Below, one piece after another: positions 43,748 to 46,002 of a DNA stretch of 64,000 nt (within the stretch, counting starts at the first letter, position 1; every line of letters begins with the position of its first letter). This stretch comes from Escherichia coli. Its GTDB lineage: Bacteria; Pseudomonadota; Gammaproteobacteria; Enterobacterales; Enterobacteriaceae. The notes beneath the pieces were generated by a model. It saw only the letters and a list, made by a program, of their open reading frames with translations, ran no database searches and was not told the origin of the DNA. Both the position numbers and the translations under genes were made by a program. Where the stretch lies: assembly GCF_009931435.1 (NCBI RefSeq), contig NZ_CP043415.1; one strand, 5' to 3'.

Positions 43748-44311
43748 TCAGGCACGCAGACGAATAATCATCGTCGGGACATCGGTATAAGCAAACGTGC
43801 CGCGCGGCAGCTCCTCGCGGACGTCAGAAAACGGTAACAGCTTCTCCTGCTGGCGTGGTCCGTTGAGACAGACGGCGACCAGCACGCCACCCGGACGCAA
43901 CAGGGAAAAGGCCCGCAGGATATGCCGGATATCCTGCCCGTGGCTGAACGGCGGATTCATGATAACCCGGCTGTAATACTGCACTGGCTGCCATTCCATG
44001 AAGTCGCCACACTGAACCCTGACACCGTTAAAATTTTCCCGCAGATACCGGACCAGCCCGCTGTTGATTTCCACCGCATCACACATGGCCCCCGGCGCGG
44101 TATCCCGAATCGCCCGCAGTATGGCCCCGGTGCCGGCAGAGGGTTCCAGAATGTGATCACGGTTGCTGATCTCCGCCAGCATCACCAGGCGATCACAGAC
44201 CGGGGCAGGAGTCACAAAAAGCTGAGATTCAGCCCGGATTTCAGCAACCGGCGCGGCGTTATCCAGCCTTGCGCGCATCAGCCGGATACGTTCTCTTAAC
44301 TGACTGTGCAT
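43748..44311 (-). CDS. Small SAM-dependent methyltransferase, 187 aa (motif I then NPPF)
   Basis: EPSAGTGAI SAM-binding motif followed by VIMNPPF; GGAG RBS. Confidence 0.75.
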   Translation of the reverse strand: MHSQLRERIRLMRARLDNAAPVAEIRAESQLFVTPAPVCDRLVMLAEISNRDHILEPSAGTGAILRAIRDTAPGAMCDAVEINSGLVRYLRENFNGVRVQCGDFMEWQPVQYYSRVIMNPPFSHGQDIRHILRAFSLLRPGGVLVAVCLNGPRQQEKLLPFSDVREELPRGTFAYTDVPTMIIRLRA

Positions 44312-44358
44312 ATCATTATCTCCGTCATCCCCCGGGGATTTTCCCGGGGGGATATACC

Positions 44359-45720
44359 TTATTTCTGTGGGATTTCCGTGATTTTCATGTCGGTGATATA
44401 CACATTCACCAGGCGGAAATTATTGTCCATTGTGCGGCGGTACCGGTATGCCCCGTGGTCTTCTGCTTCTGCCACACTGCGCACGGCCTTACAGTCCCGG
44501 GGCAGGGCGGCCCACTGTGCCTTTGTCATTTCCCGGAAACCTTCCCCCGGATAGTTGACTACCGGCGGACGCTTCGCGGCCTGACTGGCGACGGCAGCCT
44601 CTTCTGCCGATGGTGCTTTGTAGTCCGTGATGCGATCGGGCGTCACTTTCATCGTGCCGCTGTACCCGAGAAAACTGTAATTTGGCGTTGTGACTGAACT
44701 CACCGCCCCGTTGCTTTTGTTCACACGGATGATGGTCAGCCACTCGCCCCGGCTGAAAACCTGTCCGCCCGGCTCAAAATCCTGTGTCCGGGTAACCACG
44801 CCGCCGCTTTCGTCCAGCATGGCACGCTCATAGATCAGGCGGTTCTGATAGTGGTTAACCCAGCGTTGTTGATGCTGAATCTGCCGTTCATGACAGCGGA
44901 TCGCAATTTCGCGGGCCTGCTCCGTGGTGATGATGTCATCATCCAGGGCCGACCATAACGATCGACTTCCTTCATACTGGCTTTTTTCTGCCGGGCGCGG
45001 ATACGTATCCAGCGGGAAACAGGCGCTGATATGGTCATGACTGCTGATGAGTTTTGCCATATTCAGATCCAGCGATTCAGCCCGCCACATCGTCAGATAT
45101 TTCTGCGACTGCGCGATGGTCTTTTCAGCCTTGCGCAAATCAGCTTCGATTTTTTTGATACGACGCCAGCGAACGTCCGGACGTTCTTTATACTTCGCGT
45201 GAAGCAGTGCCGACCGCGCCCGCTCTTCCCAGTATTCCGCACGTTCAAAGAGCATCACGGCTCGTTTCATGCCGTTTTCAATACGCTGCGCATCACGACG
45301 GGCGCGGCGTTCGCTGTGATGCCCCACAAGAATGGGCTGACCGGGCGGGATCATCGCGGCCAGTCTTTCCACTTCATCAAGTGCCTGTGCGGATTCACTG
45401 GCCCGCTTTCCGCTGTATCCGGTAAACCGCTCCGCCCGTGCTTCCTGACGTTCAGCGAGCGTGCTGTCTTCATCCTCAATCTCTCCGGCAAGTGAGAGGA
45501 GCACGTCTTCCCGGCCCGGTGTCCAGGCTGGCGCGACAAACAGCGCCTGTTTTGGTGCCCAGCGGAAACCGGCATCATGCACTTTTTTATACGTCTCCGG
45601 GTCAAGACGTGACACGGCATACAGGCGCAGTTTGTTGTCATCCGGTGAGTAGGTCGCGCGGTACATCTGCACAGGGCTGGCGGCTTCCGGGGCGGTCATG
45701 GTGATTGCTGCTGATGTCAT
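44359..45720 (-). CDS. Conserved leading-region protein of unknown function, 453 aa
   Basis: Long ORF with AAGGAGAA RBS; Arg/Glu-rich central region; no motif I can assign. Confidence 0.75.
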   Translation of the reverse strand: MTSAAITMTAPEAASPVQMYRATYSPDDNKLRLYAVSRLDPETYKKVHDAGFRWAPKQALFVAPAWTPGREDVLLSLAGEIEDEDSTLAERQEARAERFTGYSGKRASESAQALDEVERLAAMIPPGQPILVGHHSERRARRDAQRIENGMKRAVMLFERAEYWEERARSALLHAKYKERPDVRWRRIKKIEADLRKAEKTIAQSQKYLTMWRAESLDLNMAKLISSHDHISACFPLDTYPRPAEKSQYEGSRSLWSALDDDIITTEQAREIAIRCHERQIQHQQRWVNHYQNRLIYERAMLDESGGVVTRTQDFEPGGQVFSRGEWLTIIRVNKSNGAVSSVTTPNYSFLGYSGTMKVTPDRITDYKAPSAEEAAVASQAAKRPPVVNYPGEGFREMTKAQWAALPRDCKAVRSVAEAEDHGAYRYRRTMDNNFRLVNVYITDMKITEIPQK

Positions 45721-45771
45721 AAAATGTTCTCCTTCCGTCTGTTGCCGCCCCTCGCGGGGCGGCTCACCTCA

Positions 45772-46002
45772 TCAGTTAAAAGCGCGTTTCAGTTCGAGTG
45801 TGCGGAGCACCTGCCCGAAGGCCGTGTTTTTCATGGCGGGGATGTGTACACCACGCCCCCGGTGAAAACTCCGGGCAATGTGTCGCCCGAAGGCTTTCAG
45901 CACGGGGTCAATTTCCGGCGCGGGGATGTCTTCGCGTCTGAAACGGGGATGACGGCGGGGCTTTACAGCCGCTGCGGAAGGTGAAACAATACTTACTGTC
46001 AT
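45772..46002 (-). CDS. Small basic hypothetical protein, 76 aa
   Basis: AAGAGG RBS 7 nt upstream of ATG; weak. Confidence 0.35.
   Translation of the reverse strand: MTVSIVSPSAAAVKPRRHPRFRREDIPAPEIDPVLKAFGRHIARSFHRGRGVHIPAMKNTAFGQVLRTLELKRAFN

Follow-up and report, generated by a model that had tools for sequence, protein, structure and literature searches.

Orphan methyltransferases encoded in plasmid leading regions have been proposed to protect incoming DNA (Samuel et al. 2024, PMC11541004; Fomenkov et al. 2020, PMC7736820). M.EcoGIX and M.BceJIII are single-strand-specific and are silent in established cells, and their proposed role is to guard the plasmid at entry (PMC7736820); early protection by a single-strand methylase has a precedent in M.EcoGIX. 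Two families enriched in leading regions were described by Samuel et al. 2024 (PMC11541004): DUF3560 (family 28, 1,913 members, median position 12) and an adenine methyltransferase (family 26, 1,957 members, median position 11), the latter being probably, from its mix of annotations, the family of the 187-aa methyltransferase reported here. The idea of an early orphan methylase is already published, and both families are already catalogued, as uncharacterized. DarB of phage P1 counters type I restriction; its polyvalent-protein module has the arrangement LPD36-methylase-SNF2 (Iyer et al. 2017, PMC5512222). Finally, published work links the Frpo of plasmid F to zygotic expression.

Like M.EcoGIX and M.BceJIII, the locus analyzed here encodes an orphan leading-region methylase oriented for expression from the entering strand. 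The window, that is, the whole stretch of 64,000 nucleotides of Escherichia coli DNA that was analyzed, contains the following module, whose host replicon is an IncF-like plasmid and which lies in the leading region behind the third copy of an Frpo-type repeat:

45772..46002, minus strand: first cistron, encoding a very basic protein of 76 aa (pI 11.9; 'YdaB' in one source)
44359..45720, minus strand: 453-aa DUF3560 protein ('YdbA'), read as the non-catalytic N-terminal module of a bipartite methyltransferase
43748..44311, minus strand: 187-aa gamma-type amino-methyltransferase catalytic core without a target-recognition domain (motifs, AlphaFold2)
43667..43690, minus strand: probable operon terminator, a G+C-rich hairpin with 9 of 10 pairs and AAA/TTT flanks, 58 nt past the methyltransferase stop (sequence reading)

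The three are genuine genes and not chance ORFs, with dN/dS values against their homologs on a Klebsiella IncFII(K) plasmid of 0.12 (76 aa), 0.08 (453 aa) and 0.28 (187 aa). The 76-aa ATG is preceded by the RBS AAGAGG and the methyltransferase ATG by GGAG, and the strong RBS that the preliminary description had assigned to the 453-aa gene is readily seen as GGAAGGAGAA 7 nt before its ATG. RefSeq labels the products 'hypothetical protein', 'DUF3560 domain-containing protein' and 'class I SAM-dependent methyltransferase', respectively. The hairpin at 43667..43690 failed the T-run rule of the terminator scan, so its role as a terminator is one that we infer. The module has ssb, KlcA and DUF1380 genes as neighbors, and no second copy of any of the three proteins, or of the antisense RNA described below, was found within the window. 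Upstream of the 76-aa gene, the window contains a small ORF in degraded form. Annotation across 27 kb round the module, taken from a plasmid that is 99.3% identical, contains no restriction endonuclease, in agreement with the earlier view of a methyltransferase without a restriction partner.

The 453-aa protein, in which the preliminary description had recognized no domain, matches Pfam DUF3560 (PF12083) at residues 89-206 (E 1.1e-36, model positions 3-121 of 124), and the same match is present in 21 of 21 long relatives. This domain has no assigned function in Pfam. Relatives of the protein number 3,883, and its AlphaFold2 model (mean pLDDT 92.2) displays long helices rich in Arg and Trp; this half may supply nucleic-acid binding or recruitment. 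The loop GQPILVGHHSE, nearly invariant in the family, could be catalytic instead, and this counts against the reading as a binding module. Searches found no solved structural or sequence relative, no detectable similarity to known target-recognition domains, nothing in the PADLOC defense models or NCBIfam and nothing significant in sub-region PHROG scans, and the literature on DUF3560, ydbA and leading-region methylases yielded no functional study. A resemblance of residues 258-321 to DUF905 (YubL), suggested by weak tblastn and PHROG hits, was rejected at an hhalign probability of 3%. GenBank phages gave just one weak partial match, and the viral occurrence of the family is visible only in metagenomic IMG/VR contigs.

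A closer look at the 187-aa protein corroborated the motifs noted before, EPSAGTGAI from residue 56 and NPPF from residue 119. This is the gamma order, with motif I before motif IV (NPPF), and both EPSAGTG and NPPF are invariant in 25 family members, the invariant motifs of the family being QLF.TP, EPxAGTG, MNPPF and F.YT.V.T. The first of these (Q30, L31, F32 and P35 invariant) lies ahead of helix 36-46, as in an N-terminal helix capped by TP, and the combination of TP with NPP[YF] is the EcoKI/TaqI-like signature of Iyer et al. 2017 (PMC5512222). The AlphaFold2 model (pLDDT 87.7) consists of one Rossmann-type domain; neither a target-recognition domain nor a cognate specificity subunit was found in this single-domain model or in the family, whose members are uniformly ~187 aa long. 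The protein matches PHROG polyvalent-protein and 'DNA methyltransferase' families at E 1e-32 to 1e-31, those of polyvalent proteins of 1,200-3,900 aa at 1e-32, followed by PADLOC MADS mad2 (1.2e-20), type II methyltransferases (1e-10) and M.TaqI (3e-6), and a homolog sits within a 3,066-aa podovirus protein. The methylase domain of P1 DarB (DarB residues 91-267) is homologous (E 9e-7) and has in common the TP, the LEPSAGTG motif I, N[PV]PF and LP.GTF. By these similarities, its closest relatives are TaqI/EcoKI-like adenine methylase domains found in the "polyvalent" proteins of phages and plasmids, e.g. P1 DarB, and the 187-aa half is predicted to be a TaqI/EcoKI-like N6-adenine methyltransferase core.

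The methylase differs from both of its functional counterparts. It has no detectable sequence similarity to M.EcoGIX (BLASTP best E 0.79 over 10 residues), a beta-class DPPY enzyme made in one piece of 227 aa from a promoter of another hairpin class, whereas the window enzyme would combine a gamma-order NPPF core with a 453-aa partner. As regards DarB, both enzymes would be delivered or made as DNA enters; however, the window methylase is read as synthesized in the recipient under a single-strand promoter and not packaged in the virion, and it is encoded as two genes. The partner is also different, since Pfam searches of the operon and of its 650-700-aa relatives returned only DUF3560, methylase families and one LPD29, with no LPD36 and no SNF2 helicase.

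A methyltransferase of this fold might also act on host RNA (rRNA or tRNA adenine) or protein, targeted by DUF3560, and thereby reprogram the recipient like the neighboring ParB-like HerB. The fold leaves the substrate class undecided, as RNA methylases (DIMT1, PH1948, METTL5, Erm) score about equal to DNA methylases in fold and profile comparisons. The sequence, in contrast, favors DNA. The NCBIfam models for Erm (33.8 bits against 212), KsgA (29.1 against 171) and PrmC (24.2 against 199) stay far below their curated cut-offs, so that the rRNA or protein methyltransferase considered in the preliminary description as a way to overturn its proposal was not found, and the matches to DNA-methylase families are better by 12 to 24 orders of magnitude. 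The TP-capped helix is a signature of EcoKI and TaqI, and homologous domains occur in DarB-type virion proteins. We hold action on RNA or protein to be very unlikely.

The relation between the two larger genes is the central result. A homolog of the 187-aa methyltransferase is fused to the C-terminus in 99 of 149 representative distant relatives of the 453-aa protein, in the order of the window genes. Among 80 IMG/VR loci, the methyltransferase is fused in frame in 71, adjacent in another frame in 3 and missing in 3, and 3 contigs end too early to judge (linkage in 74 of 77 evaluable loci). As the methyltransferase is fused or adjoining in most relatives, the window represents the split form of a mobile-element enzyme of ~650-700 aa, and the 453-aa protein, earlier taken as an independent unknown, is better described as the N-terminal part of that enzyme. 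A second, independent split pair was found, with a 4-nt gene overlap and close to a Lar restriction-alleviation gene. Fused forms are located on an IncP-like backbone next to KlcB and SSB, in integrative elements with RadC and on phage-like contigs. The two proteins of the window may form a complex; in type I HsdM+HsdS and METTL5-TRMT112, a methylase core depends on a separate subunit.

The same data bear on whether the two proteins could be independent, with DUF3560 as an effector of its own (a GHHSE-loop enzyme or a defense inhibitor) joined to the methylase for co-delivery. Unrelated activities are routinely joined in polyvalent proteins (Iyer et al. 2017, PMC5512222), one long relative also has an LPD29 domain, the GQPILVGHHSE loop is nearly invariant and the DUF3560 module stands without methylase in 3 of the 77 loci. 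Against this, the pairing is almost exclusive and its order fixed, no other partner domain recurs, the methylase has no DNA-recognition part itself, and the two halves have diverged in parallel, at 43-47% and 41-48% identity to one and the same set of fused relatives. Two independent proteins are therefore given only a slim chance.

Expression of the module was considered in relation to its flanking repeats, of which three copies occur in the window (35515-36141, 42885-43525 and ~46220-46870). Two of them delimit the module:

46220..46870, minus strand: repeat copy 3, Frpo/ssi-type single-strand promoter (homology to the Frpo of F; fold)
42885..43525, minus strand: repeat copy 2, Frpo-type, upstream of ssb; bounds the module on its downstream side and is the partner of copy 3 in recombination

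Copy 3 aligns over ~620 nt with the Frpo of F upstream of ssb, with 87-100% identity in 13 of 17 40-column windows, which bears out the single-strand-promoter-like repeat proposed earlier for most of its length. The last ~110-150 nt of the F promoter region match copy 2 and not copy 3, the final ~110 nt before ssb being 100% identical to copy 2 in 40-column windows. By sequence comparison, the Frpo of F is itself a chimera of window copies 3 and 2. The plus strand at 46230-46640 folds with -121 kcal/mol (z = -9.3); as the two strands of the repeat are about equal in folding, the fold energy is silent on which strand is active. Neither the -35/-10 hexamers nor the start site could be placed in copy 3, and a search of the gene strand between 43500 and 46950 gave no sigma-70-like promoter, which favors early expression. 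The oriT lies between a traM-sized ORF (32645-33028, minus strand) and an SLT-sized ORF (33368-33970, plus strand), both assigned by size and synteny. All leading-region genes, including the trio, are encoded by the minus strand, and the transferred strand serves as their template. The copy 3 hairpin would form in the transferred (plus) strand and direct transcription into the minus-strand genes that follow it. The repeat family, the orientation and the position directly upstream of an ssb operon are those of the Frpo/ssi zygotic operons of F and IncI1 (ssb-yfjA-herB-psiB-psiA); unlike these, the window operon is missing from both plasmids with measured zygotic induction and has an antisense RNA in addition. 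Conjugation has been profiled on two plasmids, F and pESBL, and neither has the module, so the conjugation transcriptomes do not cover it.

The region round the first cistron has three further elements:

45997..46096, plus strand: sRNA AS-pc01 (Rfam RF02875), antisense to the 76-aa gene over its 5' UTR, Shine-Dalgarno and ATG
45962..45990, plus strand: sigma-70-like promoter for AS-pc01, TTTACA-17 nt-AACAAT with an extended TG (consensus match alone)
45744..45763, minus strand: G+C hairpin of 8 perfectly paired bp and a 4-nt loop, separating the 76-aa stop from the 453-aa RBS (sequence reading)

AS-pc01, which overlaps the start of the operon and had gone unnoticed in the preliminary description, matches its model over positions 1-99 of 99 with 98.9 bits (gathering score 79, E 6e-19) and has at its 3' end a plus-strand terminator hairpin (46073-46093) followed by a T-run. 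The promoter candidate is the only promoter-like site in 43500-46950 and ends 7 nt ahead of the Rfam match. Because its template is the complementary strand, AS-pc01 would be made only after double-strand conversion, and it may act as the silencer of the module. The hairpin at 45744..45763 is 100% conserved with respect to the Klebsiella IncFII(K) plasmid, although the coding DNA around it has diverged. The 76-aa protein is found in Enterobacterales plasmids only (233 protein clusters, full-length members nearly all ~76 aa), and its gene is missing beside the fused DUF3560-methyltransferase relatives. It gave a weak, partial match to the HU-like Pfam PF14908, limited to residues 25-62 (E 7e-4); such matches were obtained at E <= 1e-3 for 13 of 18 of its relatives, the best with E 1.2e-5. 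No relative was found in the PDB, and PADLOC defense models and NCBIfam gave nothing.

Taken as a whole, the reading that we favor, and to which we assign about an even chance, is that the 453-aa and 187-aa proteins constitute one split adenine methylase, made early, that shields the incoming plasmid from restriction. The 76-aa/453-aa/187-aa operon would be transcribed from copy 3 as long as the T-strand that enters remains single-stranded, and the enzyme would methylate adenines of the incoming plasmid, probably with little sequence specificity. Synthesis of the complementary strand would then give a duplex that is already hemimethylated and hence restriction-resistant. Double-stranded conversion would also abolish the hairpin promoter, and AS-pc01 would then block the first cistron, leaving the module silent in established cells. 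The complex of the two proteins, DNA (and single-stranded DNA in particular) as the substrate, the low specificity, the protection from restriction and the part played by AS-pc01 are what we infer from this arrangement.

The plasmid already encodes KlcA and a homolog of M.EcoGIX (94% identical, 49741-50421), the latter 5.4 kb from the module. A second protective methylase beside these two needs a reason, and this counts against the protection reading. [quoted passage not shown] The apparent redundancy of plain anti-restriction, the presumed tight antisense silencing, suited to an activity wanted for a short time only, and the regulatory roles that plasmid methylases can have (Dimitriu et al.) all point in this direction. 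However, DarB, the nearest characterized relative by domain family, is an antirestriction factor, and the fused forms adjoin KlcB, RadC and Lar-type genes; we regard methylation for a purpose other than anti-restriction as unlikely.

Beyond a split protective methylase, a wider proposal can be made, which we put forward as possible and somewhat doubtful. DUF3560 would be a new kind of targeting subunit that turns a methylase without target-recognition domain into a single-strand-directed, promiscuous 'entry methylase', coupled to a two-part strand-state switch. The entry methylase would be common to plasmids, integrative elements and phages, and the switch would belong to enterobacterial plasmids, in which a hairpin promoter confined to ssDNA and an AS-pc01 made at the dsDNA stage would restrict activity to the first minutes after transfer.

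The module is widespread. At least 4,423 PLSDB plasmids contain at least 80% of the region, 2,855 complete E. coli genomes out of 5,426 (over half) cover its 5' part to at least 80%, and it is also present in thousands of Klebsiella and Salmonella plasmids. This abundance, together with the fact that K. pneumoniae CRISPR spacers target the module, the strong purifying selection on all three genes and the invariant catalytic motifs, is hard to reconcile with a dispensable passenger or decaying relic. Such a status would accord with F and pESBL doing well without the module, with flanking repeats that recombine and delete it and with the degraded ORF upstream of the 76-aa gene; we consider it hardly credible.

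Plasmids of this type spread antibiotic resistance, and the contribution of the module is invisible to experiments because the model plasmids F and pESBL lack it. If the 453-aa 'unknown' is counted together with the small methylase as a single enzyme, half as many unknowns are left; assays would then have to include both proteins, which could explain silent single-gene tests. If a broad-specificity entry methylase is indeed encoded here, it would help to explain the weak restriction barrier to IncF transfer, and DUF3560 would gain a function across plasmids, integrative elements and phages.

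The module consists of three minus-strand genes, located where the preliminary description had placed them, and the repeat that it had noted upstream of them proved to be one of three copies, each of ~600 bp:

43748-44311 (-), 187-aa methyltransferase
44359-45720 (-), 453-aa DUF3560 protein
45772-46002 (-), 76-aa protein
35515-36141, repeat copy 1
42885-43525, repeat copy 2
~46220-46870, repeat copy 3, upstream of the operon

The three genes are real and purifying selection acts on each, with dN/dS values of 0.12 (76-aa gene), 0.08 (453-aa gene) and 0.28 (187-aa gene) against the homologues in a Klebsiella IncFII(K) plasmid with conserved gene order. 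Taken as a whole, the earlier interpretation was partly supported. The ribosome-binding sites, including the strong one ahead of the 453-aa gene, and the EPSAGTGAI and NPPF motifs of the 187-aa protein are legible in the sequence, and no restriction enzyme gene lies near the methyltransferase in a 99.3%-identical annotated plasmid, in line with the reported lack of a restriction partner. The 453-aa protein, described as having no recognisable domain, does contain one, Pfam DUF3560 (residues 89-206, E 1.1e-36).

The 453-aa protein has 3,883 relatives among 1.84 billion representative proteins, and those at 45-55% identity are mostly 630-700 aa in length. When 149 listed representatives of these relatives were scored against the window's own 187-aa protein, 99 carried a C-terminal homologue of it (E down to 2.5e-40), and the domain order of the fused relatives is the gene order of the window. 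An independent set of 80 IMG/VR loci with a 453-aa relative gave the same picture of linkage: the methyltransferase is fused in frame in 71 and adjacent in another frame in 3, whereas 3 have none within 1.5 kb and 3 contigs stop too soon to judge (74 linked of 77 evaluable loci). The two halves diverge in step from the same fused relatives (43-47% identity for one, 41-48% for the other). A second, independent split pair of 456 and 198 aa was found in a phage-like contig, its genes overlapping by 4 nt, with 39% identity to the window methyltransferase and a Lar-type restriction-alleviation gene nearby. The junction of the fused proteins is a proline-rich linker directly ahead of a conserved QLF.TP motif, so that the two genes are divided where the domains naturally meet. 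The 453-aa and 187-aa proteins very probably constitute one functional unit. Two leading-region-enriched, uncharacterised families of Samuel et al. 2024 (PMC11541004) bear on this pair: family 28 (DUF3560/'YdbA', 1,913 members, median position 12) and family 26 (adenine-methyltransferase, 1,957 members, median position 11), whose K07317/K00561 annotation mix suggests that it is the window methyltransferase. No paper characterising either protein was found in the literature.

The AlphaFold2 model of the 453-aa protein is confident (pLDDT 92.2) and shows the following elements:

residues 20-83, small alpha/beta domain
residues 88-212, three long helices corresponding to DUF3560
residues 127-137, nearly invariant GQPILVGHHSE loop between the first two DUF3560 helices
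residues 219-260, small subdomain
residues 266-304, further long helix
residues 320-368, beta-rich domain
residues 372-442, alpha/beta domain

Arg, Trp and Tyr predominate among the conserved residues and the helical part has a pI of 10.2, a composition that would be compatible with nucleic-acid binding. Neither sequence nor fold searches returned a solved relative, and the sole addition in longer relatives is an occasional LPD29 domain.

The methyltransferase family keeps a length of ~187 aa down to 51% identity, with QLF.TP, EPxAGTG, E81, DF, MNPPF, GPRQ and F.YT.V.T as invariant motifs. In the AlphaFold2 model (pLDDT 87.7) a single helix precedes one Rossmann-type domain, and no target-recognition domain is present, as judged by the model and the family length. 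Its best sequence matches are to DNA methylases:

PHROG families of 1,200-3,900-aa phage proteins, some named DNA methyltransferase, E 1e-32 to 1e-31
MADS defence methylase mad2, E 1.2e-20
type II methylases, E 1e-10
methylase domain of phage P1 DarB, E 9e-7

The DarB alignment spans all motifs, including a C-terminal LP.GTF common to both proteins, and one phage homologue is embedded in a 3,066-aa podovirus protein. The clade is that of EcoKI/TaqI-like adenine methylases with a TP-capped helix and NPP[YF] as hallmarks, described among 'polyvalent' early-invasion proteins (Iyer et al. 2017, PMC5512222). RNA and protein methylase models match the 187-aa protein weakly, far below their cut-offs. 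By fold comparison and family profile, rRNA methylases score about level with TaqI, and for this reason DNA is rated as no more than the likely substrate class; DNA adenine is probably the target.

The plasmid is conjugative and IncF-like, and the window is its leading region. Across 43500-46300, identity to the 25 best-matching E. coli and Salmonella plasmids listed is 99.1-99.6%, and at least 4,423 PLSDB records cover at least 80% of this segment. In the 99.3%-identical annotated plasmid, traM and oriT are followed outward by genes for an SLT transglycosylase, DUF932, hok, psiB, a ParB-like gene, DUF905, ssb, the methyltransferase, DUF3560, a hypothetical gene, DUF1380, antirestriction KlcA and, farther out, a 'DNA methylase'. 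In the window, oriT lies between a traM-sized ORF (32645-33028, -) and an SLT-sized ORF (33368-33970, +), both assigned by size and synteny with that plasmid rather than by direct search. Since the T-strand enters the leading region from oriT in the 5' to 3' direction, the plus strand is the transferred strand and the template for the minus-strand module genes, following the orientation rule of Samuel et al. 2024 (PMC11541004). An IS21-family element (38916-40717, +; IstA 340 aa, 321.7 bits against a cut-off of 160; IstB 260 aa, 466 bits against 300) interrupts the ParB-like leading-region gene yfjB/herB, so that an N-terminal ParB part is separated from a C-terminal remnant (40727-42022 and 38045-38863, both -). 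Therefore, the plasmid probably has no functional HerB.

On the transferred strand, positions 46230-46640 of copy 3 form a long hairpin (-121 kcal/mol, z = -9.3); the opposite strand folds about equally well, and thus fold energy by itself cannot tell the active strand. A scan of 43500-46950 gave no sigma-70-like promoter on the gene strand. The single Frpo of the F plasmid, upstream of ssb (L002:9867-10640), is a chimera of window copies 3 and 2. Judged by 40-column alignment windows, it matches copy 3 at 87-100% identity in 13 of 17 windows over ~620 nt (45-75% in the remaining four), and over its last ~110 nt it matches copy 2 at 100%. Copy 3 is therefore close to identical to the promoter that published work links to zygotic expression of ssb through psiB, and early expression of the module from copy 3 is rated as quite likely. 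The module is wholly absent from F, and the chimera is the pattern expected if the F lineage dropped the 3.3-kb module through recombination between promoter repeats, as it would imply. It is also absent from pESBL and, with both plasmids lacking it, is covered by no conjugation transcriptome. The stretch from the methyltransferase terminator region to copy 2 includes, at 43530-43586, a hexanucleotide in perfect tandem array, (CAGTAG) x 9.5; next to copy 3, the corresponding position (46784-46851) has short repeats and is rich in pyrimidines on the gene strand.

The three genes and upstream repeat of the earlier account stand, but an antisense RNA overlapping the operon start had been missed. 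AS-pc01 (Rfam, 'antisense to pHK01_035') gives a full-length match at 45997-46096 (+), with 98.9 bits against a gathering score of 79. The region's only sigma-70-like site (45962-45990, +) lies directly upstream, a terminator hairpin with a T-run (46073-46093, +) forms its 3' end, and the first stem-loop of the RNA complements the Shine-Dalgarno sequence and start codon (ATG) of the 76-aa gene. Reportedly first described in a pHK01 small-RNA study, AS-pc01 has been found by RT-PCR in E. coli vesicle preparations. Its template is the complementary strand, so it cannot be synthesised before the plasmid is double-stranded; AS-pc01 would act as a second lock holding the operon off in established cells. 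It occupies exactly the gap separating the 76-aa gene from a 46-aa ORF (46097-46237, -), what is left of a 75-aa gene that Klebsiella IncFII(K) plasmids keep in intact form (L010:4355-4582) and that has degraded in the window, with internal deletions. The 76-aa protein, called YdaB by one source, is conserved at ~76 aa in Enterobacterales plasmids only (233 protein clusters), is very basic (pI 11.9) and matches an HU-like Pfam family weakly and only in part, though recurrently. Its gene is absent beside the fused DUF3560-methyltransferase relatives; a lineage-specific leader and a DNA-binding accessory are two possible roles for it. Between its stop codon and the 453-aa ribosome-binding site lies a hairpin with a perfect G+C stem of 8 bp and a loop of 4 nt (45744-45763), 100% conserved in the Klebsiella plasmid with flanking genes 18-25% diverged; RNA stability, processing and translational coupling are candidate roles.

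The homes of the fused forms are establishment or early regions of mobile elements: an IncP-like plasmid backbone with KlcB, KleA, SSB, KorA and KorB-type genes, integrative elements with RadC, resolvase and integrase, and phage-like contigs. In the IncP-like plasmid, which is metagenomic, the fused gene (L008:9194-12055) immediately follows a KlcB-like gene, in the region that is the usual IncP-1 slot of the KlcA (ArdB-type) antirestriction gene. Chromosomal CRISPR spacers of K. pneumoniae match the DUF3560 gene (three) and the SAM-methyltransferase gene (one), with a hypothetical gene directly ahead of the methyltransferase as a further target of its arrays (PMC6965323); the conserved module is thus a target of its hosts. 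In pO157, the DUF3560 gene goes up together with its leading-region neighbours after ciprofloxacin. Leading-region orphan methylases expressed early from single-strand promoters have been proposed to shield incoming DNA (PMC11541004, PMC7736820), M.EcoGIX being the sole case put to test. A 227-aa beta-class DPPY methylase at 49741-50421 (-) is 94% identical to M.EcoGIX of pESBL, a characterised single-strand methylase, and is unrelated in sequence to the 187-aa enzyme; thus the leading region holds two unrelated orphan methylases. The module enzyme differs from M.EcoGIX and other known systems in its gamma-order core without recognition domain, in what seems to be an obligate 453-aa partner of unplaced fold family and in the antisense RNA at the operon start, and from DarB, whose methylase domain is akin to its own, in missing the helicase. 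Anti-restriction is slightly favoured as the purpose of the module. Very common yet experimentally untouched, the split DUF3560 and NPPF-core enzyme is a new variation on the published early-methylase concept.
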